Below are positions 509-27,500 of a stretch of DNA of 64,000 nucleotides, in pieces. The notes below the pieces were generated by a model, which saw only the letters and a list, made by a program, of their open reading frames with translations, searched no databases and was not told where the DNA came from. Origin of the DNA: Amia ocellicauda. Its lineage: Eukaryota. Position 1 is the first letter of the stretch. Each line of letters opens with the position of its first letter. The stretch covers positions 18,085,962-18,149,961 of the forward strand of contig NC_089855.1 of NCBI RefSeq assembly GCF_036373705.1, in the 5' to 3' direction. Position numbers and translations under genes: made by a program.

Positions 509-3500
509 GTAATTATTATTTCAATCAAGTGTCAGAAACGAGGACTTTTCCTTAACAATATCCTTGTCCTAGAATACTGTTAACTTTTTTTTATTATTTT
601 GTGCTTTATTTTCTGATTTACTTTCATACGCTCCTAAAACCCCCCCAATGATATTAAGTGTTAAAGAGAATATGGGTGTTGGAATTTTTAATTTTCAAGG
701 AGAATTTCTTGATCATGAAACCTAGGTTGAATAAGTAGTTTCCTTAAATATGATTTGTAAAACATTTTACTTGAGCCTTATTTTATATCACTGTTTTTCG
801 TTGTTTATTGTTTCTCATTAATTCATGGATGTTTTGCATTTGAGCTTTTGCTGTGTATTTTCACTGGGAAACTGGATTTTCAGGGCCAGGTGCTTGTGAT
901 TTGTGATGTTTGTTTGCTAGTTGATTGCAGTGTTAGTGCTAAAGATCCTCTACCTCTTCCAACTGCTGTTTTGAGGACACTTTTTATAATTGCAGTAGGG
1001 GTAGAACTCCAGCTTCTACTGCTTCTTTGTTTTTTGTGTCTCTCCTGGGCTTTCAGTCCATCACTCTTTGTAGTGAGGAATTTGGGCTTGCTGCCCAGGC
1101 CTCCCCACACCTCATCTGGTCTTGTGCAAACACCTGGCGCTTCCCCCTGAGAGCTGTCACTGTGTCTATTGCAGGCCTGCGGGGGGCAGCAGCACTTGGA
1201 CGGCCACGGCATGCGACTTCATTTCATTCTACTTAACTGGAGCTATGGCGATCATGACTGTTAAGGTAACATTGTCCTAGCAAATATGGGGAAGGCAATG
1301 TTTTGGTCAACTTTCCTTCTCTCAGCCAGAAAATGGTGCAGTTCATGAAGAAAATGTTAAATTGCAGGAAACTAAAGTTTTTTTTGGAGATGTTGAATCT
1401 TTCTTTTTTTTTTTTAAACTCCAAGATGATCAGATCTGCAAGAAACTGAAAAGGCATCAGAAACTATTGTCCCTGTTTTGAAAAGATGCCTGGACTAAAC
1501 TGCCACCTCTCATACTGAATTACAAAACAAAACAATCTCTCCCTGTTAGGAAAATACATCTGTTCGGCCAGTACCAGTCGTCCTGTACTGTTCGAACAAT
1601 GCTGGCCAGGATGTCAGTGTTGCAGATTACCTTGTTGGTGAAGGATTGGCCTTGAAGGAAAGGAAGTAAGAAGAAAGTTCTAAATAAATAAATGTATACA
1701 CAAACTGCAGTTCTGCTGAAAACTAGTCTGAATAGTACAGCGAGTAAAAAAGTGTATATTTACTTTTGTTTATGTTACAGTCTGGCTAAAACAAAATTTG
1801 AAACTGGTGTACAGCTGGAGGACATCCCCACAGTGGAGGACTGCTCTTATGGTGAGGAGTCGGCCCCTATGCCTCTGTATTGCCCCCCTGCTGCGGCCCA
1901 CAGAACCTTTCCGAAGAGAGAGAGGAGCCAGCCCTACAGCCCCCCCGACCTCCCGCACTGTGGCCGAATGCAGGTGCTTGTCACCCACGTTGGGGATGAC
2001 GGGGTTATCCATGCCATGACCAGCCACGCAGGTCTGTGAAACACCTGTTCTCCTGACAGCATTTCTAAATAAATAAACTGCAACCTGCCCATTTAATATA
2101 TAGTACTGTGCAAAAGTTTTAGGCAGGTGTGAAAAAATACTGTTATGTAAGAATGCTTTAAAAAATAGACCTGTTAATAGATTATATTTAACTAAATGCA
2201 AAGTGAGAGAACAGAAGAATAATCCATATTTGGTGTGACCACCCTTTGCCTTCAAAACAGCATCAATTCTTCTAGGTACACTTGCACACAGTTTTTGAAG
2301 GAACTCGGCAGGTAGGTTGGCCCAAACATCTTGGAGAACTAACCACAATTCTTCTGTGGATTTAGGCAGCCTCAGTTGCTTCTCTCTCTTCATGTAATCC
2401 CAGACAGACTCAATGTTGAGATCAGGGCTCTGTGGAGCCATACCATCACTTCCAGGACTCCTTGTTCTTCTTTACGCTCAAGATGGTTTTTAATGACTGT
2501 CGCTGTATGTTTGAGGTCGTTGTCATGCTGCAGAATACATTTGTGGCCAATCGGATACCTCCCTGATGGTATTGCATGATGGGTAAGTATCTGCCTCTAC
2601 TTCACAGTATTGAGGAGACCATTCATTCTGACCACATCCCCAACTCCATTTGCAGAAGTGCAGCCCCAAACATGCAAGGAACCTCCACCATGCTTCACTG
2701 TTGCCAGCAGGCACTCATTCATGTACCGCTCTCCAGCCCCTCAAAGTTTGACTCATCTGTCCAGAGCAGCTGCTGCCATTTTTCTGCCGCCCAGTTCCTG
2801 TGTTTTCGTGCATAGTTGAGTCGCTTGGACTTGTTGCCACGTTGGAGGTATGGCTTTTTGGGCGCAAGTCTTCCATGAAGGCCACTTCTGACAAGACTTC
2901 TCTGGACAATACATGGGTGTACCAGGGTCCCACTGTTTTCTGCCAATTCTGAGCTGATGGCACTGCTGGACATCTTCCGATTGCGAAGGGAAGTAAGCAT
3001 GATGCATCTTTCATCTGCTGCAGTAAGTTTCCTTGGCTGACCACTGCGTCTACTGTCCGTTTTTTTGTGCTTCTACAACAGAGCTTGGACAGCACATCTG
3101 GAAACCCCTGTGTGCCTTGAAATGTCTGCCTGGGAGAGACCTTGCTGATGCAGTATAACTACCTTGTGTCTTGTTGCCGTGCTCAGTCTTGCCATGGTCT
3201 ATGACTTTTGACTGTAAACTGTCTTCAGCAACCTCACCTTGTTAGCTGAGTTTGGCTGTTCCTCACCCAGTTTTATTCCTCCTACACAGCTGTTTCTGTT
3301 TCAGTTAATGGTTGTGTTTCAACCTACATATTGAATTGATGATCATTAGCACCTGTTTGGTATAATTGTTTAATCAAACACTGACTATATGCCTACAAAA
3401 TCCCTGACTTTGTGCTAGTGTAACTAGAAGAATTGATGCTGTTCTGAAGGCAAAGGGTGGTCACACCAAATATGGATTTGATTTTTCTTCTGTTCACTCA

Positions 3501-3607
3501 CTTTGTATTTAGTTAATTGATAAATATAATCTATTAACATGTCTATTTTGAAAGCATTCTTACTTTACAGCATTTTTTCACACCTGCATAAAACTTTTGA
3601 ACAGTAC

Positions 3608-3639
<32 letters not shown>

Positions 3640-4857
3640 CACTCACCTAAAGGATTATTAGGAACACCTGTTCAATTTCTCATTAATGCAATTATCTAAC
3701 CAACCAATCACATGGCAGTTGCTTCAATGCATTTAGGGGTGTGGTCCTGGTCAAGACAATCTCCTGAACTCCACACTGAATGTCTGAATGGGAAAGAAAG
3801 GTGATTTAAGCAATTTTGAGCGTGGCATGGTTGTTGGTGCCAGACGGGCCGGTCTGAGTATTTCACAATCTGCTCAGTTACTGGGATTTTCACGCACAAC
3901 CATTTCTAGGGTTTACAAAGAATGGTGTGAAAAGGGAAAAACATCCAGTATGCGGCAGTCCTGTGGGCGAAAATGCCTTGTTGATGCTAGAGGTCAGAGG
4001 AGAATGTGCCGACTGATTCAAGCTGATAGAAGAGCAACTTTGACTGAAATAACCACTCGTTACAACCGAGGTATGCAGCAAAGCATTTGTGAAGCCACAA
4101 CACGTACAACCTTGAGGAGGATGGGCTACAACAGCAGAAGACCCCACCGGGTACCACTCATCTCCACTACAAATAGGACAAAGAGGCTACAATTTGCACA
4201 AGCTCACCAAAATTGGACAGTTGAAGACTGGAAAAATGTTGCCTGGTCTGATGAGTCTCGATTTCTGTTGAGACATTCAGATGGTAGAGTCAGAATTTGG
4301 CGTAAACAGAATGAGAACATGGATCCATCATGCCTTGTTACCACTGTGCAGGCTGGTGGTGGTGGTGTAATGGTGTGGGGGATGTTTTCTTGGCACACTT
4401 TAGGCCCCTTAGTGCCAATTGGGCATCGTTTAAATGCCACGGCCTACCTGAGCATTGTTTCTGACCATGTCCATCCCTTTATGACCACCATGTACCCATC
4501 CTCTGATGGCTACTTCCAGCAGGATAATGCACCATGTCACAAAGGTCCAATCATTTCAAATTGGTTTCTTGAACATGACAATGAGTTCACTGTACTAAAC
4601 TGGCCCCCACAGTCACCAGATCTCAACCCAATAGAGCATCTTTGGGATGTGGTGGAACAGGAGCTTCGTGCCCTGGATGTGCATCCCACAAATCTCCATC
4701 AACTGCAAGATGCTATCCTATCAATATGGGCCAACATTTCTAAAGAATGTTTTCAGCACCTTGTTGAATCAATGCCACGTAGAATTAAGGCAGTTCTGAA
4801 GGCGAAAGGGGGTCAAACACAGTATTAGTATGGTGTTCCTAATAATCCTTTAGGTGA

Positions 4858-4911
<54 letters not shown>

Positions 4912-7900
4912 CATACACACACTGATCAGCCATAACATTATGACCACTGACAGGTGAAGTGAATAACACTGATAATCTTATTATCATGGCATATGTCAGT
5001 GGGTGGGATCTATTAGGCAGCAAGTGAACATTTTGTCCTCAAAGTTGATGTGTTAGAAGCAGGAAAAATGGGCAAGCGTAAGGATCTGAGCGACTGACAA
5101 GGGCCAAATTGTGATGGCTAGACGACTGGGTCAGAGCATCTCCAAAACTGCAGCTCTTGTGGGGTGTTCCCAGTCTGCAGTGGTCAGTACCTATCAAAAG
5201 TGGTCCAAGGAAGGAAAAGCGGTGAACCGCCGACAGGGTCATGGGCGGCCAAGGCTCATTGATGCACGTGGGGAGCGAAGGCTGGCCCGTGGGGTCCGAT
5301 CCAACAGACGAGCTACTGTAGCTGAAAAAGTGAATGCTGGTTCTGATAGAAAGGTGTCAGAACACGCAGTGCATCGCAGTTTGTTGCGTATGGGGCTGCG
5401 TAGCCGCAGACCAGTCAGGGTGCCCATGCTGACCCCTGTCCACTGCCGAAAGCACCTACAATGGGCACGTGAGCATCAGAACTGGACCACGGAGCAATGG
5501 AAGAAGGTGGCCTGGTCTGATGAATCACGAGTTCAAGGTGTTGACTTGGCCTCAAAATTCCCTTAAAGACTTAAAGAATCTGCTACTAATGTCTTGGTGC
5601 CAGATACCACCACACACCATGACTCGACAGGTCTGGGCTGTTTTAGTGGCAAAAGGGGGACCTACACAATATTAGGCAGGTGGTCATAATGTTATGGCTG
5701 ATCGGTGTATATCTCTAGTGCAATTCTATAACATATAAAAACCCTTCCAATTTAGTTTTAATAATTGTTGAATAATATATTGTAAAATGTAGTTCTAAAA
5801 CTACACTCAGTTTAACATGGTCACCAACACCACTGCTGCTATTTTAGTTACCGAATGAATTTGTTGCACACGAACACTAGTTGTCTGAATCCAGGCACAC
5901 ATTGTACACACAGGGCTGTGAGCTCACCTGTAATTTCTTTTTTTCTTTTCTGAATGCAGAGCAGATATTTGAGACGCTTAAAACAGACCTCCAGCAGCAT
6001 ATTAAATCTCTTCCTCGCCAAAGGCCTTACAGCTGGGCGCTGGGCCACGGCTGTGCAGTGATGGGCTCTGACATGCTGTGGTACCGAGCAGAGGTGCTGG
6101 AGGTGATGGGTGGGAATGTGAAGGTTAGTGCTCACTCACCGTTACTAATGATCACCTGCACTGCAGTTTGATTTCCAGTTCCTGAAAGAAACACGTACAG
6201 GTCCCTAATATGCCAGCCTGTTGCTTGTTAGTTGGGACGGAGTATGATGCAGATGTTTTGTTAATGCTTATGCAGTTGGGAACATGTCACGACCTCAGTT
6301 GGTCGATGGGTCGAATGGCCTCCTTTCGTTTGTAGACTTTCAACTATAAAGAAATTGGGTTATTTTTTCTTTTGTACCTGTTTGGAGCAATGAAGTGGTT
6401 TACATTTCTCCGTGGGACAGGTGCGGTATGTGGATCAGGGGCTGATCGAGAACATCCCCATGTGCCACATCATCCCCACGGTCCTGTATAAGGAAGTGCC
6501 TCGGCTGTGCATTCCCTGTCAGCTCCATGGAGTTATACCTGTAAGTGCCAATGTCATAAGAGTATTTACTTTTAACTTTGCAGAACAAAAGAAAGAAACG
6601 AAGGGAGGGTAAGGGTGTTGAATGTTATAAGTGGAATTTCTGAGTAAATATCCGGGCTGAGAAAAAGGAATCCATTATGTTCTCGTCCAGGTGTCGGTCT
6701 TGGAAGCATATACTGTCTGAGTCACTGAGGCAAATGCTGGGCTCTCTGCTTTTCTCTACAGGGGACTTCATGTAGGATTGTGGCATTAAGATTCCCAGAG
6801 TTTTCTTGATGCTGTGTTCTCTCCACAGGTTGGCACAGTTTGGCAGACCGATGCAGTTGCTTTGCTAAAAGAGTTACTTCAGTGTCGATCTGTTGATATG
6901 CAGATCATGGTACAGTATCCTTATACAATACAGTATAGAAAGCATAAGGTGTTAAAGCATTTGTTCTGAGTGGATTTAGTTTGTAATGTGAAACAATGTA
7001 AATGCAGGAAGAAGTAGCTCAACCAGTGAAAACCTCTTCATGTAGATGCACCATTTGGCAGTTTCTTGGGAGAGCACACATGCATTACAGTACTGTTTAC
7101 TAATAAAAACATGATTACCATGTGAGCAGAGTTGTAGGCACTGTGTTGTCCCTACTTGTGTGTGTGAAAGGCATGCGAGTCTTTTCATGTGTGAAAGACT
7201 AGTCTGGGATGTATGAATGACACAGGTGTGTGTTTGGCGGCCTGTTGTAGGAGCTGCCCTCAGAGCCGCTTGGCAAGGTGACAGTCCAGATCCATTTTGA
7301 CGGGATGACTCTGAGTCGTATCATGGAGCACCATCGGCACGCCTCGCGGGACCCCTCTGTCAGCGTGCCTGAGGTACGGGACCGCAGCCAAACCTGCGCA
7401 CTGAGCCGATGTACTGTGCTGCTGGAGTCTCGGCATTGTATGACTGAAAGTATCTTGTCTTGCCAGGAAGCTCTAATGACTTCATCCAACAAAGAATTGG
7501 AGAACTGGGACTTAAACATCATGGTAATATATTTTTTATATATATACTAATGATAAAAAAAATATCCTCTACCAAATTCTTAACAAGGTGCTTTCTGTGC
7601 AGGGACTGACAGACGAAAGGCCGCTGCCGGGACTCTTCACTTATCCTCCATTCCCAGACACTGGAGAGCACTTTCCTGTCAGAATCAAACACATCCGCAC
7701 CCCTAACGAGGTACTGTCACCAGCTGAGAGAGCTGTTATGGTCTGAAGCTATTTTCAAACTTTCTGACCTCAAGCAGACCAGACCAATGTGAAACAAAAA
7801 AATCACTTCAGTCTTCTGGTAGTAACATGCCCAGCTTGACCATTTAGCTCACATTTCTTGTGAAACTGTCTTCATCTAACCCACTTGAGTATGTTTTTTG

Positions 7901-8417
7901 TGTTTTTTTCTTTCAGGATTGTAAGGTGTTTTCACTGTGACTAGGTTTGAGGATCTTGGATACAATAGATACATAATTCATGGAAAAAATATATTCACTG
8001 CATTTCTAGATTAGTATTGTTGATTTATTGACTGTTTAGAACAAGAATACTGCAACTTCTCTCATGTAATGGAAATGTGTATGACCTTGTAATTTTAGGT
8101 TCACTAACTGCTTCAGTAAGTGTAAGTTGTGATTTTAATTATAAATCAAACCCCCGTTTCCTCATTGAAAAACTACGCCTGAGGGGTGATTGGTTGTTTC
8201 TTCCACCAAACTAGATCGTCCTATGCCCTGCGGTGGAGTCGGCGAGTGTGGCAGACTCTGAGGGCCTGGACGCAGCTCTGAAGCGGGTCAACGAAGAAGT
8301 GCACAGCCTGCCGCTGCTCACCGATTTCTCCTCAGGTACAGGGACAGGACAGCTGTTGATGCGACTTGGGTTAGCAATACAAGTCAAAGAGGAGTTTGTA
8401 CTTTTGAAACTGGTCTG

Positions 8418-8455
<38 letters not shown>

Positions 8456-9676
8456 GAAATGCATTTAGAATCACCTACACAAAGCCCTTTTAATATAGAC
8501 ATTCACAGAACAGTGTTTATTTGTGCAATAAAAATGCCATTTAAAAATAACCCTGAGACACCAGTTTACAGATGCATAAAGTAAAGCTGTGTTGGGGAAA
8601 AGATTAATGAAGATGATGAGAGAGGATCAGCTTTCAAATTACACATTAATTTTCCAATCTCAATATCCATTTGGTTAAATAAGGAGTTTTACTTTCATGG
8701 GGAGTGTTCTGTGACACTATTGCTCTTTTATTCTTTATTCTCCTTCCAGAGGCCCCATGCTTGGCAAAATACAGTGATGGCAAATACTACAGAGCAAAGT
8801 TACTCAAGATTGAGAACTTCAATCCTGTTAAAGTCCTAGTGAGGCATGTTGACTACGGTTCAGATGACTCGTTGACCACAGACTGGTAAGGTGGCGTTGC
8901 TTTTCTGATTTTGCCAAATGTGATCTGGAAATGTTTCCTCTTAGATTATATAAATTTCAGAAATGCATATTCAACTATTTCTGTGTTAATCATTAATTTT
9001 TACACTTAAGTCAAGCTATAACCCTCACTCCGATACGTGGGAATGGGATAGAGAAAGGAAGTCCGTGGCATCGGTCACAAGATCTCCTAACTTGGTTTAC
9101 AGACGGAGGCTGAGTTCAGGGACATTTAATCTCGGAGCTAATCTAGACACAAGGGTGCAGGAGATTGGCCTGCTGTCTGCAGAGAAATACTCCCCACAGG
9201 GCAAGTCAAGCCCATGCCCCTGTGCCCGTCTACAGAGGGGAAGCACAGGACATCCATAGTTCTATTTATTTTGCAGCCTGCGTGAAATCCCTGTGGAGCT
9301 CCTGCAGTACCCGTGCCAAGGAATCGAAGTGAAAGTGGCCGGGATTAGGCCGCCTGAAGTTGATGATGAAGAACAGAGGTTGTCCTATAAACCGGAGTGG
9401 AGCTTAAAATCCATAATCGAGATGATGGATCTGCTGCATGGAAAACAGCTGACTGCATCTGTGCTGGTGAGGGTTTCAAAAATGCAAAGGCCAAGGGGTG
9501 GGGGGTGGGGGGTGGGGTAGGACGCCTTCATGGGTTCACTGTGTATAGAATTTAAAACTGAAAAAAACATTTTCCATTAGTCAACAGAACCCGAAATCAC
9601 AGCACATCTGTATGATGAAGACGAAATGCTGGTACTTTTGCCACTCGTGGACAAAGGTCTTGCTGATTTAATGTAG
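396..9676 (+). CDS. rnf17: 3' portion of a multi-Tudor-domain protein gene, most likely rnf17 (tdrd4). The gene start lies upstream of the window. 13 coding exons are listed individually.
   Basis: Repeated extended-Tudor signatures in spliced exons (G.C.A..DG.WYRA.V; VRYVDQG..E.IP; YRAKLL...[14 protein letters not shown]; LV.EGLA). The gene lies tail-to-tail with cenpj, as RNF17-CENPJ do in human 13q12. All junctions are phase-consistent. Confidence 0.7.
1175..1265 (+). CDS. rnf17: rnf17-like exon ([30 protein letters not shown])
   Basis: Acceptor tctattgcag|G, donor GTTAAG|gtaaca. The phase links exon 396-508 to exon 1550-1665. Confidence 0.55.
1550..1665 (+). CDS. rnf17: rnf17-like exon, Tudor C-terminal part (…[30 protein letters not shown])
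   Basis: Acceptor tctccctgttag|GAAAAT, donor AGGAA|gtaaga. It carries the V.VAD.LV.EGLA Tudor ending. Confidence 0.6.
1781..2031 (+). CDS. rnf17: rnf17-like exon (linker plus start of the next Tudor: …[26 protein letters not shown])
   Basis: Acceptor tttatgttacag|T, donor CACGCAG|gtctgt. It lies in the ORF 1692-2039 frame. Confidence 0.65.
2101..3609 (-). mobile_element. Degenerate Tc1/mariner (Tc1-like) DNA transposon A. The transposase is broken by frameshifts. Long terminal inverted repeats (about 200 bp) begin CAGTACTGT.CAAAAGTTTTA.GCAGGTGTGAAAAAAT.
   Basis: Minus-strand ORF fragments 1770-2441 (…[17 protein letters not shown]…[16 protein letters not shown]) and 2715-3095 (…WTDESNFE). 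A matching inverted repeat lies at 2101-2290 versus 3420-3609. The element sits in an intron of the rnf17-like gene. Confidence 0.8.
3609..3638. repeat. (GT)n(TA)n compound microsatellite between Tc1 elements A and B
   Basis: gtgtgtgtgtgtgtatatatatatatata read directly. Confidence 0.9.
3639..4861 (+). mobile_element. Compact Tc1-like DNA transposon B with an intact transposase ORF and about 30-bp perfect TIRs (ACACTCACCTAAAGGATTATTAGGAACACC)
   Basis: The TIR at 3639-3668 matches the reverse complement of 4832-4861. It encloses ORF 3788-4828. Confidence 0.85.
3788..4828 (+). CDS. Tc1-family DDE transposase, 346 aa, uninterrupted (HTH/paired-like N-terminus, DDE core with …DDE… QQDNAPCHK…[14 protein letters not shown])
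   Basis: Full-length ORF in the six-frame track. It shows canonical Tc1 motifs ([44 protein letters not shown]). Confidence 0.85.
   Translation: MGKKGDLSNFERGMVVGARRAGLSISQSAQLLGFSRTTISRVYKEWCEKGKTSSMRQSCGRKCLVDARGQRRMCRLIQADRRATLTEITTRYNRGMQQSICEATTRTTLRRMGYNSRRPHRVPLISTTNRTKRLQFAQAHQNWTVEDWKNVAWSDESRFLLRHSDGRVRIWRKQNENMDPSCLVTTVQAGGGGVMVWGMFSWHTLGPLVPIGHRLNATAYLSIVSDHVHPFMTTMYPSSDGYFQQDNAPCHKGPIISNWFLEHDNEFTVLNWPPQSPDLNPIEHLWDVVEQELRALDVHPTNLHQLQDAILSIWANISKECFQHLVESMPRRIKAVLKAKGGQTQY
4862..4912. repeat. (TG)n(TA)n microsatellite between Tc1 elements B and C
   Basis: tgtgtgtgtgtgtatatatata… read directly. Confidence 0.9.
4916..5708 (+). mobile_element. Internally deleted (non-autonomous) Tc1-like transposon C. 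TIR CAC(A/C)…GATCAGCCATAACATTATGACCAC. It is flanked by TA.
   Basis: ORF 5111-5566 encodes only the N-terminal HTH part of a Tc1 transposase (…[21 protein letters not shown]…WSDESR). It then jumps to the C-terminal tail (…KGGPTQY, 5469-5675). Terminal inverted repeats lie at 4916-4950 and 5675-5708. Confidence 0.8.
5960..6123 (+). CDS. rnf17: rnf17-like exon, Tudor domain (…[29 protein letters not shown])
   Basis: Acceptor tgaatgcag|AGCAG, donor GTGAAG|gttagt. The phase fits exon 1781-2031. Confidence 0.75.
6421..6540 (+). CDS. rnf17: rnf17-like exon, Tudor domain continuation ([40 protein letters not shown])
   Basis: Acceptor ccgtgggacag|GTG, donor ATACCT|gtaagt. It starts and ends in phase 0. 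Confidence 0.8.
6829..6909 (+). CDS. rnf17: rnf17-like exon ([27 protein letters not shown])
   Basis: Acceptor ttctctccacag|GTT, donor ATCATG|gtacag. Confidence 0.7.
7251..7373 (+). CDS. rnf17: rnf17-like exon ([41 protein letters not shown])
   Basis: Acceptor cctgttgtag|GAG, donor CCTGAG|gtacgg. Phase 0 at both ends. Confidence 0.6.
7603..7710 (+). CDS. rnf17: rnf17-like exon, start of the last Tudor ([36 protein letters not shown])
   Basis: Acceptor ctttctgtgcag|GG, donor AACGAG|gtactg. Confidence 0.7.
8215..8335 (+). CDS. rnf17: rnf17-like exon ([40 protein letters not shown])
   Basis: Acceptor ccaccaaactag|ATC, donor CTCAG|gtacag. Confidence 0.65.
8420..8453. repeat. poly(T) homopolymer of about 34 nt in an rnf17 intron
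   Basis: Read directly. Confidence 0.95.
8750..8885 (+). CDS. rnf17: rnf17-like exon, Tudor core ([45 protein letters not shown])
   Basis: Acceptor ctccttccag|AGG, donor GACTG|gtaagg. Confidence 0.8.
9277..9466 (+). CDS. rnf17: rnf17-like exon, Tudor continuation ([28 protein letters not shown]…[15 protein letters not shown])
   Basis: Acceptor tttattttgcag|CCTG, donor GTGCTG|gtgagg. Confidence 0.75.
9581..9676 (+). CDS. rnf17: rnf17-like terminal coding exon ([31 protein letters not shown])
   Basis: Acceptor ttttccattag|TCA. It is in frame to a TAG stop at 9674-9676. It carries the Tudor C-terminal LV..GLA motif. Confidence 0.55.
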   Translation, partial: STEPEITAHLYDEDEMLVLLPLVDKGLADLM

Positions 9677-10435: not shown

Positions 10436-10628
10436 CTAGCTCCTAGTGTCCATTACCACATTCCCATCCTTATCCTTGACCCGTACTCTGCCGGTGGTGT
10501 ATCTGGTTTCTTGCTGCCCATCGGCGAACACAGTCTTCACCGTCCCATCAGGGTACTCTCGCCTCTTGTACTCTGCTGTGTGCACTTCTCTCTGCCCATT
10601 GTTGAATTCAATGACTTTACTTCCATCT
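10436..10628 (-). CDS. cenpj: cenpj last coding exon (…[63 protein letters not shown])
   Basis: Acceptor (minus strand) gtaacacag|AGATGG. Stop TAG lies at 10436-10438. Confidence 0.85.
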
Positions 10629-13600
10629 CTGTGTTACATATGGAGAGGAGAGGGGTGGGGGGGTAATTATTCCTTTTCCTTTGTTAAAGAAAGATTAATT
10701 TTGCACCAGAGATTTTTTTAGTTCAGATATGTTAGTAATAACATTGCTTGCCTCCCATAATTGGCTGAATTAGTGCTTAATTACCAGGCTGTTTAACTTT
10801 ATTAATACTTTATAATACACACAGTTTAGGAGATACTCATATGTCATCTGGACAATGCTATAGGGCTCCACTTCCTAGGGTGGGGAGTAGTTTTTAGTAG
10901 TGTGGGAAATTATTTACCTAGATTGGAAACAACTGTTTGGGAAAGACTCACAGACCTTACACTATACACTTTCCAGGAAGCGATAAAGGCTGCAGTGACT
11001 TACAGCTTCACTCGTATTATAGATCCATCTGGGAAAATGCTTTCCTCCTGGCCGTCGGGGTACAGATTCTTAATGGTCTGATCTGGAAATATGATTTCTT
11101 TTCGGCCATCGGGGAAGTGCTTTTCTGTAAGGAGAAAAACATGACAACACATGAACTGGGTTCTTCTGAATTTAAAAAAAAAAAAAAATCTTTAGAAGAA
11201 ATGAGAGAGAGAAAAAAAAATCCTACCGATTTGGCTATTTGGAAATTGCAATACCTCCAGGCCATCTGGATAGGTGGTATGAGTTGTCTGAGCATCAGCA
11301 TAATAGTAAATCTGAACAAGAGAACATAACACTTGGTAAACATCTATTGCAACAAACAAATGCTTTGGAGTTGGGCAAAGTGATTGATTTATCAGATTCA
11401 ATCACATCACCACTGACTAACTAACAAGGAAAAGTGATATTTTATTGTGAAGGCTCAGCTTTCAGGATCGGTAAGTTGATCTGTTCTTTAAAAACATGCT
11501 GAATTTTGCATAAGTTATGCAATTTAATATAGGTGCAAAGTTATACTTCTTTATATATAACAATCTAAAATGACAAAGCTTATAGCCAGTGCTGAAAAAC
11601 TAGATAATCACCACCTGCTCAAATAAGTGGGGAAACTGGACATCCTAATTAAGGTACTCACCACTCTTTGATCTGCCATGATTTGTTTAACATCTCCATT
11701 AAAGAACGTAACCTTCACAGTCTTCCCATCCGCCAACACCTCTTTACGGGTCCCATTGGGGAAAACAATTAATCTGGATCCACTTCGTAACAGCCGTTCT
11801 ATCTGAAAAAGCACATCGTATAGATATTTTCTATCAATAACTTATTGGCTGTAGACTTAAAACCCATACTGGATACTAGACAGTCAAATCTCAAAGAACC
11901 ATTTAAGACCACTGTTCCTACCTTTCCATCTGGATGAGTGATTTCCTCCTGGATATCGACACTTTCCTTAACGTCACACATTGTCTGTAACAGCCCAGTC
12001 TGCAGCGTGCTCTGCAGAACAAATCATTCAAAGTCTGTTTCAAACTTTCCCATAATCAGATCGTAGAACAAAACGAATATACACTTTAAATAAACGCTAC
12101 ATCATTATGCTACCACATGAGAGAGCTAATCATTTGTGATGTTTAAGCCACCACCTTGTAGCCCTGAAAGCAGATCTGGAGACTTTGGGGATTACAATGC
12201 ATTAAAACAGGGATAAAATGATTGATGGATGTAAAAATAAGCGCTTGAGACATTACATTTACTTAAACTTCCCACTTACAGGAGGGACTGCAGAAGGAGA
12301 TTGTGGGCAGAGCATCATCCGCCTGGGCTCTGATAGCACCTGCTCTTCTGGAACAGATGTGTTGGATGGGACTAGGGTAGATCCCTTACTGTTGACTGTA
12401 ACAGACAAGTTACTTTTGTTTTTCTTCAACAAGTTAATTTTCCAGGACAAGATTTAAAAAATTGGTTAAACTTTCAATTTATGGTTAGTGAAATTACATG
12501 GATAGAGGCTGGCATACAATATTAAGCTATATTTAGTCTCTCAGTGAACTCTTTATGCTGTTCCATAATTAAGTGAATTCTGTGTTTAACCAGAGCAGTC
12601 ACTTTTACAGCTCCTTGATGAACGTCAGATGCCAAACAACTCTTCCAATACAATAGGACTAATTCAACTCTGTTACCTGTGAATCGAAGGTTAATAAAAA
12701 GACAAGCAGACGAGATGATATTTCTGCTTTACCTCTCACTGGGGGGCTGTTCTTCTGTGTTTGCTTTGTCACTGGAGGGCTACTCTTCACAGCACACAGA
12801 GGACTCTGAAAGAAGATGATTATATTTAACTGAACATAATAAGTAGTAGAATCATTCCAGAGAATAATTAATGAAGTAGAATCATTCCAGTTCTGAATAC
12901 AAATGTGTTATTCATACCCAACTTGGGGATTCTGAGATGGGGATTAAGTATATGTCCCCACTATGAAAGGACAGTGACCAGAGAAGCACACCTGTAGTTA
13001 CACTGGACTTACAAATGCCACTGCCCTTTCACAGCCCTGCAGTGGAGAATGCACTATAAACCAAAGAGGATGACTCACAGTGGACTTGGCTCTTTGAAGG
13101 CCATGTGTGCTGGCGTCTGCCTGGTTGGGCTTCCCAGACTCCGCTTCTGCCTGTCTCCATGCCTGCACACGCAGTCGCTCCAGCGCCCGCACCTCATCGC
13201 GCAGGGCACTGTTCTCTTTGCTCACGGTGTCCAGCTGCTGACGCAGACGGCTGTGGGTGCTGGCCCAGCGCGTCTCCCTGCGTTGCAGCTCCTCCTGCAG
13301 GGACGTCACCTGCTGCCTCAGCACCTGCAGCAGAAACACACTCACTAAGCCACATAGCACCACCACTTGAGATCCAAACAGGTCAAACAGAGGTGGACTG
13401 TACTAAAGGTAGTAAATTCACTGGCAGGGTCATGTAGCTTACAAACAAATTCTATTGGTTCAACTCCCTTCCACCCACCACCAGCTGCCCAATACCTCCA
13501 GACATGTATCATCATCACCTATTATACATCCAAATAACACACCTTCTTCACGCTGATGTACATTTAAAAAATGTTTCTTATTGTTACAAGCATCTGCCAG

Positions 13601-16600
13601 CAGGAGTCCGATGCCGAGATGAGGTCTCACCTGCATCTCCTCTCGCTCCTTCTTGTCCGGTATGGCCCTGGCGGCGGCAGCATATTTTTCAAATACTTTG
13701 CGCTCCTTCTGCAGCTTTTTCATCTCCTCTTTCTTCAGCTTCTCCAGGAGAGCGAGCTCCTCAGACTTCTTCCGTTCAGTCTCTGCTATCTCCTTCCTGC
13801 AATGAAGTCTTCTCTTTCAACAACAGTGGAAATTCTCCAGAGACACCCGTAGGTGTATGGCAAAATCAAGCGTAAAATTAACTTGCCCTACAAATCATAA
13901 AAGCACGCAATTTCAACCAAAGTATTGCATCAATTAAGTTAATACAAATGATTACATTTATGAGCATGTAATAATCAAATGGTGTTCTGCACACACAAAT
14001 TGTCATGTTTAGCCTCATACATTTGCAAATGATACATCAACAGCCTTTTGCCATACATCTAATTTAATAAAATTAGTTTTAAAAATAAAATGTCCTAATG
14101 GATTTCTCCAGGGCAAGCCTTCCTAATGACATTCACAACGGTCTTCATACCTCAGGGTCTCCAGTGCCTTCTCCCTCTCCTGCCGCAGAACTGCCAGCGC
14201 AGAGTTTTCTGCCCTGAAGCGCTCGATCTCCGTCTCCAACTCCACCAGCCTGTGCCTCAGCAACGTAGACTGGGGGTTGTTCCCTGAAAGATACATAGCA
14301 TTAGGATAGTAGTAAAGGGAATGGGCCGTGCCTTGTAAAAAGGCACATGGAATATAGAAAAGGACTGGGAGATGCATGGACAAGATTCAATGATATCCTA
14401 AAACAAATTACACGATTACATCTACCTGATGCTTGCTCAGCTGCTTTATTACTCGACGCAGTGTCCTGAGACGGAGCAGGTTTGGGTTTGGGCTTCAGGG
14501 ATGGGAATAGCTTGGCTATCAGATCTGAAGTTGGGGGAGGCTCTGAACCATCTCCTGATTTAGCCTCGGCTGTCTTCACCGCAGCCACCTTCCTCTTAAG
14601 CGCTCTGTCTGTCAGCGAGGTGCTTTTTTCGGTTGGGGAGACAGACTCACTATGGGCTACTTCCGGACATCTTGGAATATCTTCCACCTCCACGTTACCA
14701 GTGTCATTGAAGTCATTCCACGTGTCGTCATCGTCAAACACAAAGCCATTTGTGTTATTTGTCCCCTTGTCTCCAGTAGTGGTTAGACCATCAGTGCTCC
14801 CATAACCACACTCCCTGGCTGCAAAACTGTGCTTTATAGCACCATCTTGATAGGATGATCTGTCATATTGGAGTGCATTGGAGTCATAAAGACCACTGGG
14901 CCCTGCTTTCCCCTCCTGCAGGGTCTTTTCATCCTGCAGAGTATCATCCAGGTCCTCAGAGTCTAAATCGCTTTGCCACGAATGGTCACATACTGCATCC
15001 ATTGCACTGGATTCATCTCCTCTATCCTCTGGATCGTTATTCTGGTCCTTTAAATCCCACTCTGATTTTGCTGCCTGCTCAGCCTCCTCTTGCTTGAAGC
15101 CCCCAGTTTCTCGTGTAGTCTGGGAGCCAAGGGGACTCTGGCCAGCTTTGTTGCTGGTTTCTGGATTTTCCTTCAAAGGTTGTGGAGATTTAACAGGTGT
15201 AGAGGACAGCCTGTGCCCTCTGTGCTCCTGTTGGTCCATCTGCAGCACTTTTAGGACAAAGGAGGAGTTGCTAGAAAAGGAAATTTCATCAGCTGCCTGT
15301 TCCAGAAGCTCAAACTCATCGAGTTCTATGTTCTCCTTCTGTTTCTGCGTCTCCCACTTCTCGGATTTCCTCTGGAAAGACAGCTCAAAGGAATACTCCC
15401 GGTCTTTAGGAGGTATGTCTGTAGATAACTGCGGCAGTATACATTGACCTTTCTCCTCCAAACATGCCTGCTTTACAACAGTCTTTGCAGGCACAGCACA
15501 CACTGTTTGGGAAGCTTCTACTCTTATCCCTTGAATCTTCATGCCCACTGCTTCCTGGGATTTCGCAACCTGCCCCAGTGGTTTGCTCTGATTTTGAGGT
15601 CTGAAGTCTCTTGCAGGGTCTTGAGTCATGGTCTGCCCAATATGGTTGCCAAGAACCTTCAGCACCTGCCCCCCCCTGGTCAAGGACACGGGCTCTGGCC
15701 GGTTGAAAGGGCTCTTTAAATGCTCACAGTTGTTCTCTTTGTTCAAAATGGCAGTCTTGCGCTGGACTGGCTGTAGGGTGTTCTTTACTGTGTTCTTGGG
15801 CTCTTGCTGTTGGGCATTCTTCACAACATGCTTGGGCTGTGCCTTAGCATTGGTTTTAATGGGTTTCTTGACTGGAACAGCTTTCCCTTTAGTAAACCGG
15901 GAAAGACCTTCGCCACGCTTCAGGAAGGTTCTTTTAGGGTTGTCTTTTATTTCCTCGGTCGGAGCTGGGCCCTTTAAATATAAATATAAATAAAAACCCT
16001 TGAAAAATATTAGGGATGATAGCAGTACATCTTAATAAAGGGATATGAGAGGTCTGGAGATCTTAAAAGCAAGATCTCAAACTAGATTTACTTTCTCTTG
16101 CAGTAATAAATACCATGTAATGGTAATACAAGAAAACAACAGTTTTTCCCCCTTTATTTCTATGAATATCAGCCAGTACAATTACAGCACCAAACAAACC
16201 TTTCACAAAGTCCTAAAAATAGTTATCAAAAGCAGCCCTGTCTACTCTATTCCCACTAAGGAGTGCTTGCTGCTGCTGTAAAGGATCAGCTGAATGAAGC
16301 ATGAGCACAGACCTGCTGCTCCAGTTCAGTCGCTCGTAGCCTCTGCTCCTCCAGTCTCAGCTGTTCCTCCAGGAGCTCCTCAAACGTCTGCTTCCTGCCT
16401 CCAATCCCAGGCCTGATTGGCCTAGTCATTCACGCGTCAAGAACAAAAACATGGACACATTTAATAAGGATGGGGTCATTATAGTAGAAATATATACTAT
16501 GCATTATGAGTGCGATCACTTAAATATTATGGAGAAAAAAAAAAAAAAAAAAAAACTAAACAAGCAAGCCTCATTATAGCTTCAGCTCCATAGATAAATG

Positions 16601-19200: not shown

Positions 19201-19950
19201 TCTGGGAATTGTAGTAACAGCAGGCGACCATCTACGTTTGAAACATTAGGGAATTCTGATGCTGAACTACGTTTCCCATAATGCAGTTCTCGATGTACGT
19301 TAAAGGGACGAGGTGGTGACGTAATGTTAAAGGTCGCGTTGTGGTGCAGATTTACGCAGATCTGCGCTGCTCCGACAATGGGATTGGAGGATTTCTGCAG
19401 ATCTGCACAGAACTGTGGCAATCTGCGCTACAAGAACGCGAGCATACGCATTTTAAATAAATCTGCAGTGTTTGTTTACATTACACAAGGCGGGAGGAGG
19501 GCGCTAAAGTTACAGATGATAGCCGCTAACTTTGGGTCAAACACTGTTACCAATATCTGATGGTTCTTCTCAAAATGTAACTATGGACTCGACATTGTTA
19601 CAGTTAGGTAGTTGCTGCCTTTAAAATGTATATATATATATATATATACACTTTACTTAAAAACAAAACAAAACAAAACCAAAAAACTAGCGCGGAGCAA
19701 CTGAAGTTGGTACAAATGAGACGACTGCAAACATCCAAACCACACACAGCTCCTTGCACCAACGGTATAATTACATGAAACTTAGCGGGCGAGAGGAGGC
19801 TAAATACAGTTTCATTTTTAAAGGTTTATACTATCAGATGTCCACTAGATGGGAATATAGATCCCATTCTTCATAAACTGAGGGTGAAAAGCAGGCTTGC
19901 TATACCCGGAAGTGCGAGTCAGGCAGGACCGGGATTGGCATTTGCAGTTG
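19060..19950. promoter_or_regulatory. cenpj/parp4 head-to-head (bidirectional) promoter region
   Basis: There is an elevated-CpG interval of about 0.9 kb between the divergent first exons. ZNF143 SBS-like motifs lie on the minus strand at 19198-19219 (ACTACAATTCCCAGAATCC) and on the plus strand at 19265-19293 (ACTACGTTTCCCATAATGCAG). ETS/GABP CCGGAAGTG lies at 19905-19914. CCAAT (ATTGG) sites lie at 19381-19386 and 19933-19938. Confidence 0.6.
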
Positions 19951-20030
19951 TGTTTTCACTCGCCAGACCCCGACCAGCAGCCGCACTTCGAGCTGATCCC
20001 CCGGCACAGCTGACGTGGGAAACTACACAG
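19950..20030 (+). other. parp4: Putative non-coding exon 1 of parp4. The start is approximate.
   Basis: A strong donor ACACAG|gtacat ends at 20030. The ATG-containing exon 24380-24511 has an acceptor (aacttgcag|TTAATCATG). Confidence 0.45.
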
Positions 20031-23000
20031 GTACATATTTATTTCATCTAAACACTTCGATACACAAAAGCGATCGTTTATTCAGAAGTATTTGAACAGC
20101 TGATATAAGCGTCACAGACTGGGGGAGGGGTGCTGTGTGGACTTACTTGACAATAAATGAAAGTGCCTACATGTAACGCAACATGTTTGAAATGTTGAAA
20201 ATGGAGTGCGACATCAGACCAGTGACATTGCATTTATTTACACTCATTAGGTGGTTTATCTTGCAATGTAACCTATCTGTAAAGCTCATTTTGATTGGCG
20301 AGAAAAGAAGACACTAGTGAGAAACACCCAGTTGTCCCCTAAGGGCTTATCAGAATAAAAAGGCATAACTTCAGTTGTCAAATGGTGGGTTAAAACCAGG
20401 GAGCATGAAACACAAGTGCTGTTCTGACCTGGATCAAAGATTACCTCGACCAATAGACCAATATAACAATCACCTGATATGTTGTAATGCAATACATCTA
20501 ATTGTGTGTGGAAGGTTGACTAATATCCTGAAACCCAACTTGCTGGTAATGAAAAGGTGTGTTGAACCCAGGTAAAGAATTGAAGTCTTAACGCACAGAG
20601 GATAATGTATTTATTTAACATGCCAGCCCTGGGAGCTCTGACATGGAAGCTCTCCACCTGAGTCTCTCTGAACAGCAAGATATTTACAGCTTTCATACAA
20701 TGCATGCCATGTGGTTCAGTGGGCAGAGTCAGTCACAGGCTTCCAAGAAGTGGAAGGTCAAGTCTTGAGGTCAAGTTCCTGGCCTTTGTAATGTCCTTGG
20801 TTGTCTTCCTGGGGGAAGGTGTGGGATGTGGAAACCAGATGGCTTCCTTGGATATACTGGGAGAGGTCTAGTCCCAAGGGTCATCATAGCAACTGTTATT
20901 CAATAACCATGATGTGACTGCTCCAGCCTTAAGATAAGCCACAGCAATGCATGAAGCAAATGCTGGGAGGGACTTTTGCTGCGTCCACACTCGTAAAAAC
21001 AGCCTCACTAACATTTGTTTGCTTGACAATTAATACAATTGGCTCTGTTGACGTATTAGTATTTCAAACATGAGTGTAAAACATTATACAGCATATACAA
21101 AGCATTAATACGGGCTCTTCAGGTGCATAAGGGGATTATTAATGGTATAATATATTTTCTTATTTCATGTTGTTGCGGTCCTCCTGCCAATACTTGTTGT
21201 TATTATTATATACATATATGAAATTACATGTCGAGTCTCATGTCAGCCATACAATCACTGTCAGCAAATAAAATACAATCTACATTTTATATTTTATATG
21301 TTGCTATTTTATATTGTTTTTAAATCAATCGTACATGATCAAACATCAATATACCCAATGTATGTACAAATACAATTTGTACCTATCAACTGGACTCCTC
21401 CCTCCCTCCAGTCCCTGTGCAGTGGCAAACTGTTTAATAAACTAATTCAGGATAACTGAATCAAATTTAGGAAGATTCCTGCCCTAGTGTCCCCAGGTGG
21501 AAGGGGCCCCAACAGGTTTTCATTTACGATTCTCATGTGATGTCAGAGCACATTTCAAAACCACACCAAGGAACAGCCCGGGGGAAAGTAGGGGGTACTA
21601 ACAGGCCAAAATACATCGGATTGCTTGCATATTGGTTCACATCTTCGCATGCATACTGTATCAGTTTGTGTGTGTACTGAAACTATATTTAGCCTCCCCT
21701 CAAGTGGGCGGGGCAGGACTAAGACGGACAAAAGGAAATCAAGGCGGTAACAGCAGTGTGATTTAACTCATCTGAGCAAGACATTACAGATTACTTTTAA
21801 GTATTGATGGCTGTATTCAAAACACGTATTACACACCAACATTTCAATTGGTTTATTGTTCTCAAATTATCTGATTCTAGAGCAGGCGATGTGCAAAAGA
21901 ATGATTTATTTTTAATAAAGTTTGTGTATTGGATGAATACAATTCCATTAATTTTCTGAATCTCAAATAAGAGGGCTGTAAGCGAGGCTATATCTACCTG
22001 AATCATATTGTTTAGATTTATTTATCAATGTGTTTTTTCTAGTAATGTGTGTTCATACAGAGTTGTAGACTTAATCACATTACCAGTGAATGTTGAAATC
22101 ATTTAATCCATCACTTATTTTGCTCTAAAACACATGATTTTCTACACATCACATATTCATATATTATTATCACGATTTGTTTTATTATCAGATTTGATTT
22201 TCTGTTCATAATTATATGTCTAATAATTTTGTCTTCCCGATTATGATGTTTATATTGAATCCGATAGTTGCAACAGAGCTGTTTATTTCCTTTATGAAAG
22301 TATCGTTAATCTAATAAATAATATTATTTATTTCTAAACAGATTACCTTGTCCAGGGTGACTTACAATTAAATACAATTACAATATACAATAACTTTAGT
22401 GCTAGTAAGAGCAAGTGTCAGAGACAATTCCATTAAATACAGTACTACTGGTAATGAGTAATTAGACACCATACAATTCATTTTCCTGATAATAATAATA
22501 ATACATGTTATATTGTAATGCAATTATTGTTAATCTAATAATACAAAGCCAATATAATATTATTTGTTTAAATAGGTGTGTAAAATATTAGAATATTGGA
22601 CAAATAATTGATCACATTCAATATTGTTGAATTTCGGATATAGTCCAATTATTAAATGCAATTATTTATTTTATTAGGAGAGAAATGAGAATGAAATGCC
22701 AGATATTACTCTTATGGATTATTATAACTGGAATTTTTTTTTTGTATTCATTAGCTATGTTCAGTTTTTATTTTGAGACAACATATGCAAGGATTCTAAC
22801 TTGCTTAAATGCGAGCATCCAGAGTAAGAATGGGAGACGAGCTTTTCTCAGAGTGCAACTATGTAAAATGCAAATGTATCTTGTGAGCAGTGTGGGTCTG
22901 AATGAATGTCTATCTGGTCAACATTTAATTTGCTGAGATTTCTACTCTGATGAAGTAAAGTGTTTACATTTACTGTACTTTACATTTTGGAAAAGAGCTT

Positions 23001-23250: not shown

Positions 23251-24385
23251 TTGAGTCCCGGCCTTGAATCCAAGACTGTATTACTAAGTATTAATTTATG
23301 CGGAAACTATTTGTGATAGAGACTTGTGTTTTTTGTGCTGCATACCTGAGTTTCTGAAGAAAAGGAGGGTGTGGTTTGTTTAAACAGCATCTTTCCTGGG
23401 TTCTGCAATCCAATGTGCAACTGCAGAACATCGGCATGGTATTGTCCAGTAGAAAATACGTTACTGTGGTATATGCGCAGCCCTAAAGATCTTTGTTTTT
23501 TCACCAAATCACAGACTGTGACTCTGAGAATATCTAGCCGATCCAAAGGACCCTCTGAAAGCCCTGGAACTCGGCTGATAAGGCAGGTGTCAGGTTAAGC
23601 ACTGCTTCACGGTAGTAGTATGCATGTATACTATACTTATAAGGCAGTATTTGAGTGGAAAATGTGCATGATTAGGTTAGGGTTAGGTTGATTGGTTTCT
23701 CTAAACAACTGTCTAGTGCTTTTATATGGTCATTTATCACTGGTGTCCCAAATTCTGCCTGACTCACCCCACCTAAATAGGGCTTCCCCAGCTCCACATT
23801 TCCAATTTAACCCCTGGTATGCACACAAACTAAGATAGTATTCACACAAACCAATATAGTATTCAAGCTGCCCCATAGAAAAGACGAGTGGAAAGGGTGT
23901 ATGAAAGAAAAGGAAATGCGTTTTAAATGTTCACTGCTACATCTTGTCTGCACTGCTTGCTGGCTTGTTTTGTATGCGTGTGTGATTGTATGTATTAAAA
24001 AAAATAAGTAAACTTATTTAATTTTGTAATATAAGTTTTACAATTATTGAACATTATCTGTTTGACTACTGTCTCCCACCACACCTCTCACTATAATTGC
24101 CATCAAAAAGTGTCATAATCAATTAAAGGGGTCATACATGACCAAAAATGACTTGCATAGGCAGAAAAAGGCTATGTGGGACTAAAAAATTTCACAGGTG
24201 ACCAAAACATTTAATGATTTATGCAACCATAAAATATAATATGCAATAGGACTGGATTTAAATAAGAATTTTACATTTTATATATTATATTTTGGAAAAA
24301 CATAAATTTTAACACTTTGGCCTTTCTGTTCACTTATGTGAGGTCTTGACTACTTAACTTGACTTTACTTAACTTGCAGTTAATC

Positions 24386-24511
24386 ATGCCGGTGTTTGAG
24401 AACTGCCTTGTGGCTCTGGAGGTGAAGGACCTGCCCATCAAAGAAAAGAACAACTTAAAGAAATCGATAACCGCAAATGGAGGGAGCATTACTTATGTCA
24501 TCAATAAGAAG
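24386..24511 (+). CDS. parp4: parp4 first coding exon ([42 protein letters not shown]). The exon starts at 24380.
   Basis: Acceptor cttaacttgcag|TTAATC, ATG at 24386, donor AAGAAG|gtattc. Confidence 0.85.
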
Positions 24512-27500
24512 GTATTCAGTTTGTCCACTCCAATATATGATATATTGATTGGGATATTATATTACAAGATTGATTGGGAACTGTTTTAAAGTAATATTTT
24601 ATACAATATGCGATTTCAAAAATTATTTAATTGCCTGCATTTTGATTGTCCCTGTGTTGTTAAAGAGCTTTAATTCAGAAGTAAGCATGTCCATCCTAAA
24701 CACTGTTACTGTATTTTATTTGTCTATATCGAACTACATCTTCACTTTACATTATAGCACATTTCTACGTTTCTAATAGGTTCAGTCAGACTTGATCATT
24801 TTGTAGATTAACCTGTAAGGTAGCAGGCATCTATGTAAATGCAATGCTTCTGTTTTCATTATGCAAATTGTTAGCAAAAAACAGTTAGCCTTTTTGGTAT
24901 TCTCTTAGAACATTGTTCTCCTTGAGCCTTTGGCAAAAACCTGTACCACTGACCAGTATACAAAACGGATAAACTGCAACTAATTTGGAAATAGTCCAAA
25001 CACATTGTTAACACTTCTTGTCCTTGTGCTGTTTTGTCCTTGCACAGTGCACCTATGTTGTTGCGAGTAACATGGATACTGTGAGTTCAAATCGCCTGAC
25101 CAGTATCCGGAAGTTCCAGGTGCCTGTGGTGGGGATGGAGTATGTGTCTCAATGCCTGGAGAAAGGGAGACTTCTCAACACTGGGGATTACCCACCTGCT
25201 AAATCACAGAGACACAGCCCGCCTCCAGCCACAACACACTGGGGTACTGTATTTGTGGTGTGGGTCAGCACCCCAGCAGTCCCTTTATAAATCCAAGAGC
25301 TTGTCTTTCTAACCTTATCTTGGGTTGACTGTTTATTGCTCAAAGGGAAACACTGTAGCTGCACATCCTTATGATAAAATCAAACCCTTTTTTCAGCAGC
25401 CAGTATTGTATGAATAAAGTTTATATAACTGGTGCCTGTTTGTGTCTACTGTTCTCCTGCTGAAGTGGCACATTTCTAAACCAAATGTTTTGGGGGGTTG
25501 CTTGGGGCAGGACATGTGGAGGAACGCTCTGGAGAGAAGCCCAGAGGGCCGCCGGAGACTCCGCAGGAGGTGAAACTGGAGGAAAACGCAAAGGGGGGCA
25601 GCTCCCTTGGCCAGTTCAGGTGTGGTAGACTTCAGTCACAGCTCTTTTACATAAACTAGTAAAACAGATAGCTTCTCCTGTAGGGTTATACTTAGTTATT
25701 ATTGCATTTAGTTGTATGTGTAAAATCTTAAGTTTTAAGGTTAAGAGTAGAGCTAAAATGTGTGATTATTATTAAATGATATATCAGAAGCCTTTATCCA
25801 AACTGACATACTAGTTTTAAGAATTTCTACCGTACAGTAACCTACAATAATATGAGTGTAACATCACTATAAAATGTGTATGCATACTGCACCAAATAGA
25901 GTGAAGCTTTAAGAGAAGATTTGTGTATTTCCTGTTTTAGGATTTACAGAGAGAATGAGGCAGGGTTGCCAGCGTATCCTTCGGATTTCAAGGTGGCCAA
26001 ATATTTGGTTTTGAAGAAAGTAAGCTGGTCTTCATTTTCATTTCATTGTGTTGAACCCTATCAAATGCTATTAACAATGCGGTCAATCGTTTTATTGTAT
26101 TTTTCTTTTAATACTCTTAAATATATCCACCTTAACATGTCTGTGTAATTGTTTCCATAACATTACTTATTTTTAACATACTATATCATTGTTTTGATCC
26201 AATAAATAGGAAGTGTAATTTGTTTCTGTTTAGATGGGTTGTTGCCGTGTTTAGTCAAAATATTATCTAAAAACCTCCTCTACAGCCTCAGTGAAATGTT
26301 TGATCACTGCTAGTAAAAATTGTATTTGAAAAGGACACATTTGCAGAAGTTAAGTAATGTAATTTTTCTCCATGAATAATAGTGAAACAATACATCTTTA
26401 AGAGCATCTGGAGTAAGCTAGGCGATGTTTATTTCACATAACTATCTAAACTTTTCAGAACATTAGTTTCTGATTAGTGCTGTGCATTGCATCCAGCTGT
26501 ACCAGTGATGTCTCTGTGTCTCTCAGGCTGATGCTGTGGTTGTGGTGGAGCTGCACAGCTGTAAGGGAAACCCATCACTCCCCTTCCGTGTGACTCAACT
26601 CTGGAGGAGTCCTGCCGGTCAGGTCAGAGTTGCCTATTAAGTTGCCCTGAGTGGCTTTATATTGACTCCTCTTGAGAACTGAGCTCCAGCTAGCAGACAG
26701 TGAAATCGTGGGCTGGTCCAGCAGCCTCCATGCAAGCTTTCCTTCAGACTGACACCATTTTTGTCATTTTGATGTGCAATCTGTTGGGTGAGAAGCATGA
26801 TAAGATATCAATCTACTACACAAAAAGCTTTATGTATTATACCATTAAATGTACATTACTGGAACATCACAGTGCGGTTAATCAGATTAAAACAATGTCA
26901 CAATGGAATTAGCTTCCTGAATATTGCATTCCCTCTTCAGTTTGATGTGCTTCATTGAAGAATGTCAGATTTCAATTAATTTACACAGAAAGTGGAACTC
27001 CCTGCTTCAAGCCCTCAACCTTTCAATCACAGGCACCAAAGACCAAAAAAGAAATGATATTCACCTTGACTTCAGAAGACGCCATGATGGCCTACAGACT
27101 TGTTTTAAAGGAACTTAAGGACCAAGGCTTCAGTCCAATGAAGGAGCTGCCCTCAGATGTGAAACTCCTCGGGTCAGAGAAACTGGGAGAGGTAAGAGGA
27201 AGAGTGATTTAGGGATGAAGAGACTTGATTATAAACCTTTAGGAAATTAATGAGAGACTGTTTATGGCTGTGGAACAATTAATAATGTAAATTGGCTTTG
27301 ATTATTTTGAAAAGTGTGCACATACAAGTCATATAACGTTATCTGTTTAATATACCAATATTAATAATAATATTCTGATATTAAAGTCTTATTTGTTATA
27401 CTGTGAGTGAGTGAGAGAGAATTATTTGCATCTTCAGTCATTTTCATTTTAAAGCACTGGAAACCTTTTTGTCCACAGCTACAGAAGGGGTAGATAGTAA

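Follow-up and report, generated by a model that had tools for sequence, protein, structure and literature searches.

The Tc1-like transposon at positions 3640-4860 of the window, by which the whole analysed stretch of 64 kb of bowfin DNA is meant, is very probably an intact copy of the Incomer family that is located inside an RNF17-like gene, in one of its introns, was acquired horizontally and belongs to a family with recent mobility in bowfin, the copy in the window being somewhat older. In the proposed course of events, Incomer would have entered the bowfin lineage by horizontal transfer; the family would have transposed there recently, leaving a sister copy free of private changes at position 22387 in only one of two assemblies; and the window copy would be a somewhat older insertion, marked by seven private substitutions with four amino acid changes and by the loss of its right-hand TA.

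Earlier publications already cover the Incomer family, how it is built and how it has spread horizontally in fishes and frogs, and the general view of Tc1/mariner transposons is left unchanged. What is added here is a new host order for a known family, namely the Amiiformes (slowly evolving "living fossils"), which are absent from the Incomer table of the 2019 catalogue (PMC6875036), together with a comparison of the locus in two assemblies that directly shows an insertion recent enough to be polymorphic. In the literature that was searched, no description of Incomer in bowfin was found.

Anatomy and family placement of the element

From CACTC to GAGTG the element measures 1221 bp (window 3640-4860). 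The features of the element, of its immediate surroundings and of a second target site in the window are the following:

2101-3609, minus strand: left neighbour, an older, frameshifted Tc1-like element (terminal inverted repeats, TIRs; tblastn pieces in different frames)
3610-3639, no strand: left flanking compound microsatellite (TG)7(TA)8, read from the sequence; its last TA (3638-3639) is the left target-site duplication
3640-3668, plus strand: left TIR, 29 bp, CACTC terminus; exact match, the same as in the published Incomer consensus
3669-3787, plus strand: 5′ untranslated leader from the TIR to the start codon; private substitution at 3774, changes at 3700 and 3785 common to both bowfin copies
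3788-4828, plus strand: transposase ORF, 346 aa and stop codon; HTH_23 at aa 11-47, HTH_Tnp_Tc3_2 at aa 70-142, DDE_3 at aa 151-295
4250-4252, plus strand: codon of catalytic D155 (WSDES), from the SB100X alignment and direct count
4523-4525, plus strand: codon of catalytic D246 (QQDNAPCH), from the SB100X alignment and direct count
4634-4636, plus strand: codon of catalytic E283 (NPIEHLW), 36 residues after D246
4832-4860, minus strand: right TIR, 29 bp, beginning 3 bp past the stop codon
4861-4915, no strand: right flank (TG)6(TA)~22, with TG as first dinucleotide where a TA duplication is expected
4920-5707, plus strand: right neighbour, an internally deleted Tc1-like element with CACTG-type TIRs and an N-terminal ORF 46% identical to the Incomer transposase
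22386-22387, no strand: empty TA target site, at which assembly GCA_016984155.1 carries a second, intact Incomer insertion bordered by TA left and right

Across the 64 kb of the window, exact copies of the TIR (CACTCACCTAAAGGATTATTAGGAACACC) number two (plus strand, 3640-3668; minus strand, 4832-4860), with a chance expectation of 0, and the two repeats match at 29 of 29 bp with CACTC at both termini. The initial annotation had described perfect TIRs of 30 bp. Their identity stands, and 30 bp do literally pair, but the repeat proper is 29 bp long counted from CACTC, because other copies of the element end in CACTC...GAGTG next to TA, so that the thirtieth pair, formed by A at 3639 with T at 4861, belongs to the flanking DNA. 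The target-site duplication of the window copy is imperfect, with TA on the left and TG on the right; the sister copy described below and the copy on an unrelated contig (L001) carry TA on both sides. The TG could have arisen by one A-to-G change or by slippage of the microsatellite. One gar Incomer copy with a TG flank is also listed in the published Table S1 (PMC6875036). The pattern of (TG)n followed by (TA)n is present on both sides of the element (3610-3639 and 4861-4915), and the end of the left neighbour (…CAGTACTG) likewise runs directly into (TG)n.

The transposase ORF starts 148 bp from the left end of the element and continues for 346 codons without a stop, and Pfam assigned to it a homeodomain-like helix-turn-helix (HTH), a Tc3-type transposase HTH and a DDE_3 endonuclease domain, which bears out the uninterrupted reading frame at 3788-4828 reported earlier. 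The sole solved structure matched by sequence was the catalytic domain of Sleeping Beauty SB100X (5cr4, E=4.7e-43), and the motifs of the ORF, including NPIEHLW, align with the Sleeping Beauty motifs that carry its DDE residues. In this alignment and by direct count D155, D246 and E283 were all present, in agreement with the earlier statement that the catalytic motifs are intact. The spacing by direct count was D-90-D-36-E, and the SB100X alignment contains a gap of two residues on the Sleeping Beauty side between the second D and the E (34 + 2 = 36). The triad is therefore DD36E and not the DD34E of Tc1 and Sleeping Beauty; an alignment with such transposases to confirm the D-D-E spacing had been proposed in the initial annotation. 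The AlphaFold2 model, computed from a shallow alignment, had a pLDDT below 50 over residues 143-280 and is unreliable over the catalytic core.

By analogy with the family and with Sleeping Beauty, the paired HTH N-terminus of the transposase would bind the 29-bp TIRs, while the RNase-H-like domain with D155, D246 and E283 would excise the element and insert it at a TA, which would thereby be duplicated; TA-rich runs would be the usual landing sites. The left flanks of the five Incomer copies examined read TATATA in four cases and TATACA in one, and the readable right flanks start with TATAT, which fits a preference for TA-rich targets such as is known for Sleeping Beauty.

Incomer (IC) has been described as a family of elements of about 1.2 kb with one ORF of about 346 aa, a DD36E triad, TIRs of 22-32 bp and TA duplication (Sang et al. 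2019, Mob DNA 10:45, PMC6875036); the termini in its Table S1 are CACTC and intact fish copies measure 1169-1229 bp (PMC6875036). The window element agrees with this description in its DD36E triad, its 346-aa ORF with two HTH domains and a DDE domain, its size of 1221 bp, its 29-bp TIRs with CACTC termini and its sequence, while of the TA duplication it shows the left copy. With a D-to-E spacer of 36 residues, it departs from DD34E/Tc1 in the strict sense, for which 34 residues are characteristic. Closest to it among known systems is the Incomer subfamily with the TIR TACACTCACC(T/A)AAAGGATTATTAGGAACACC, which is found in Carassius auratus, Micropterus floridanus and Xenopus tropicalis, and the Table S1 consensus starts with TACACTCACCTAAAGGATTATTAGGAACACCTGTTCAATTTC in goldfish and Florida bass, with a near-identical one in X. 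tropicalis (PMC6875036). Compared with the printed goldfish consensus TMIC01Ccaau, the window sequence showed 99.0% identity with 4 mismatches over the first 399 bp, and the published length of 1225 bp counts two TA pairs (1221 + 4).

At the protein level, the transposase reached 98% identity with a carp entry, which belongs to a cluster of 155 sequences, 95-96% with Paramormyrops entries and altogether 95-98% with copies from carp, Paramormyrops, Polypterus (bichir) and Esox (pike). The same 90% clusters also contain bichir, pike, Leuciscus, Cirrhinus and Xenopus entries, and identity to the 26 family-level homologues of a 27-sequence alignment ranged from 54 to 98%. Judged by its near-identity to the published IC consensus sequences, the window element is an intact Incomer copy. 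It differs from the 2019 catalogue in seven nucleotide changes peculiar to the bowfin copies and, in the window copy, in seven further private changes and the TG right flank.

With this placement, two statements of the initial annotation lose their ground. The element had been called unusually small for an autonomous Tc1, but about 1.2 kb, 346 aa and TIRs of 22-32 bp are the norm in Incomer. Likewise, intact autonomous elements had been considered uncommon in vertebrate assemblies, but 33 fish species are recorded as having intact IC copies, and the genomes of Esox, Paramormyrops and Austrofundulus contain hundreds of them each (PMC6875036).

Within the superfamily, the DD34E/Tc1 elements (Tc1, Sleeping Beauty, Frog Prince, Passport and ZB) share with the window element the domain order of a paired HTH followed by a DDE RNase-H-like domain and, as their common superfamily suggests, the TA target and the cut-and-paste mechanism. 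They differ by a spacer of 34 instead of 36 residues and a length of about 1.6 kb instead of about 1.2 kb. Sleeping Beauty in addition has IR/DR ends of roughly 200 bp, compared with short TIRs of 29 bp in the window element. Traveler (DD35E) and Intruder (DD38E) resemble Incomer in being recent Tc1 offshoots that are patchily distributed among ray-finned fishes and frogs, show high identity across species and have been attributed to horizontal transfer, but their DDE spacing is 35 or 38 instead of 36, and Intruder, at 1.5-1.7 kb, has been tested in cells.

The exact cross-species consensus protein is encoded on 46 public contigs. When the window transposase was looked up exactly, neither the protein collection nor the contigs contained a match, and the protein collection contained none for the sister-copy transposase. 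When metagenomes were scanned with the TIR, one contig only was retrieved. On the JGI metagenome contig Ga0565165_005289925 (L001, 1-300), an intact Incomer copy flanked by TA at either end adjoins about 180 bp of GC-rich, coding-looking sequence, which may reflect chimeric assembly or the presence of fish DNA in the sample. A protein that bears the label of a Vibrio parahaemolyticus transposase (76% identity) is probably a similar contamination.

Host locus and probable horizontal acquisition

Tudor-domain exons were located on the plus strand at about 150-512, 1880-2039 and 5950-6130, and a Tudor gene was called at the same place in L005, the matching locus of bowfin assembly GCA_016984155.1. 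Because these exons flank the block formed by the element and its two dead neighbours (2101-5707), the block is placed within one predicted intron of the RNF17-like gene, which it fills, with the element in sense orientation. The multi-Tudor RNF17-like gene (1-2040 and 5950-9520, plus strand) is convergent with CENPJ (10436-15824, minus strand), an arrangement also known from human. The large CENPJ exon corresponds to a 507-aa ORF at 14301-15824 on the minus strand and is 99% identical to CENPJ of Amia calva (1238 aa).

The position in a microsatellite between two dead Tc1 copies, as given in the initial annotation, was found again, with (TG)7(TA)8 on the left, (TG)6(TA)~22 on the right, and a frameshifted and a deleted neighbour. 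Both neighbours are more decayed than the IC copy, so that its younger age relative to them also stands. The TIR of the right neighbour (CACTGATCAGCCATAACATTATGACCAC), whose DDE region is deleted, resembles the CACTG-ended Incomer cluster of bats, Nanorana and Amphilophus in the 2019 Table S1 (PMC6875036). Further degenerate Tc1-like copies at window 34350-36750 match bichir repeats at only 65-80%. Among them lies a 131-aa N-terminal ORF (35704-36099, minus strand) that resembles Sleeping Beauty.

The DNA of the window copy was 97.3-98.6% identical to bichir copies (L003, L004) and to two short contigs. On one of these short contigs (L002) the IC copy adjoins another Tc1-like element, presumably of cyprinid type. 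In a comparison of the window with 80 kb of bichir DNA, good matches (97%) were confined to the IC copies, the other repeats reaching 65-80%, by which bichir was set aside as the host. For the large CENPJ exon, by comparison, protein identity was 46-48% to sturgeon and 50% to alligator gar. With 99% for Amia, this also led to the rejection of spotted gar, a host considered on account of the gar copy with a TG flank. Vertical descent cannot give such a contrast between IC DNA that is 97-99% identical to that of distantly related fishes and host proteins at about 50% identity to other non-teleost fishes, and for this reason IC very probably reached the bowfin lineage by horizontal transfer. Multiple horizontal transfers of IC have been inferred before (PMC6875036), and in a 2025 survey bowfin is named among the species that often take part in horizontal transfer of transposons.

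Age and decay of the window copy

L005 aligns to window positions 874-27000 with an identity of 99.3-99.8% and 0.33% mismatches overall, by which the window is evidently derived from a bowfin assembly or haplotype different from GCA_016984155.1. At L005 4719-5939 a second intact IC copy was identified, with an intact 346-aa ORF and perfect TA duplications. Diverged or truncated relatives alone, which had been named as the finding that would speak against a mobile element, are thus not what the genome contains; a second near-identical, intact copy exists.

Both bowfin copies examined, the window copy and this sister copy, were compared with the copy from the unrelated contig L001. Seven lineage-specific nucleotide changes are common to the two bowfin copies and lead to R138Q, A253G and K271N. 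Another seven substitutions, at 3774, 4007, 4118, 4179, 4548, 4659 and 4750, are private to the window copy, and at all seven of these sites the sister copy has the outside, cross-species sequence. The sister copy thus looks like the founder sequence in bowfin, from which the window copy is removed by 0.57% divergence. One private change lies in the leader, two are synonymous and four are nonsynonymous (G74C, K131T, R254P, R291Q), a nonsynonymous share close to the neutral expectation of 73%. After about 12 random substitutions, an ORF of such composition would stay open 57% of the time; the open frame therefore reflects youth and not selection. From these comparisons the window copy appears to be a slightly decayed member of the family, somewhat older than the sister copy.

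It is rather unlikely that the window copy is itself autonomous and active now, mobilised by its own transposase. In its favour, the ORF, the catalytic triad and the 29-bp TIRs are undamaged, the family is polymorphic between bowfin assemblies, none of the four private amino acid changes falls in an invariant or at least 90% conserved column of the 27-sequence family alignment, and the Esox sequence aligned in the 2019 supplement likewise has a proline at residue 254 (PMC6875036). Against this, three of the four changes are non-conservative: K131T removes a basic residue at a mostly basic position, R254P lies eight residues past the catalytic D246, and R291Q alters a mostly conserved arginine. 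The neutral proportions of the seven private substitutions contain nothing that points to maintained function, and the open frame is a matter of youth. Moreover, the right TA flank has been lost, and in L005 the sequences that border the window copy enclose 1263 N, compared with 1259 bp in the window; the similar length only suggests that the window copy is also present there, at a locus whose other N runs are badly sized.

The proposal that the element is autonomous, still mobile and a candidate for a transposon tool is thus upheld for the intact ORF, DDE residues and TIRs and for the polymorphism of the family, and weakened for this copy by its four private amino acid changes. Because of these changes, the sister copy or the cross-species consensus would be the better candidate for an active transposase. 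With its intact ends, the window copy should nevertheless be movable by the working transposase of another copy.

Polymorphic insertion and candidate active transposases

The junctions of the sister copy in L005 read ...ACAATTACAATA-TA-CACTCACC...GGTGAGTG-TA-CAATAACTTTAG. In the window, positions 22375-22399 read ...ACAATTACAATA-TA-CAATAACTTTAG, the empty site continuing with CAATAAC. Removal of the element and of one TA from L005 restores the window sequence exactly. Therefore, the insertion is polymorphic and the site in the window an unoccupied target, as opposed to the footprint left by an excision. This presence/absence difference between two bowfin assemblies is good evidence that the Incomer family has moved recently in bowfin, as a polymorphic insertion implies recent transposition. 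The insertion polymorphism which the initial annotation had proposed to look for was accordingly found at the level of the family, with the site at 22386-22387 filled in GCA_016984155.1 and empty in the window.

It is very improbable that the family is extinct in bowfin and that the difference at 22387 arose in assembly, from a misplaced repeat or a collapsed haplotype. GCA_016984155.1 is indeed gapped at this locus, with N runs in L005 at 1499-1709, 4030, 19903-20337 and 23857-25119, and the gap sizes are unreliable (435 N compared with 4 bp beside a poly-T at window 8420-8453, 211 N compared with 42 bp, and 1 N compared with 49 bp). However, TA is duplicated precisely at the filled site, which misplaced repeats do not bring about, and reversal of the insertion yields the window sequence to the base; a collapsed heterozygous haplotype would still amount to polymorphism. 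Scarcely credible, finally, is a domesticated, transposase-derived gene with a function for the host, to which the open reading frame and the sense orientation inside a host gene would lend themselves, but which is contradicted by two perfect TIRs, a multi-copy and polymorphic family, near-identical copies in unrelated species, the neutral substitution pattern and an intronic position without sign of splicing into the host gene.

Recent movement of a horizontally acquired Incomer family thus being the preferred reading, it is possible, although we lean against it, that Incomer is transposing in bowfin today and that a naturally active vertebrate DD36E transposase is encoded by the sister copy with its founder-like sequence (L005 4719-5939) or by the consensus. 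The literature search found no transposition test of any IC transposase; for Sleeping Beauty, Passport and ZB, transposition has been shown experimentally. If the possibility were realised, this would be the first Incomer member proven to work and, with 1.2 kb and 29-bp ends, would rank among the most compact Tc1-type tools. Bowfin is accordingly a place to seek a naturally active DD36E transposase, and the sister copy or the consensus would be the sequence of choice. The practical gain would be incremental, because several natural or reconstructed Tc1-type tools (Sleeping Beauty, Passport, ZB) are already available.

The sister copy is located about 4 kb upstream of CENPJ and 17.5 kb from the window copy, and the closeness of the two copies could be due to local hopping or to chance.
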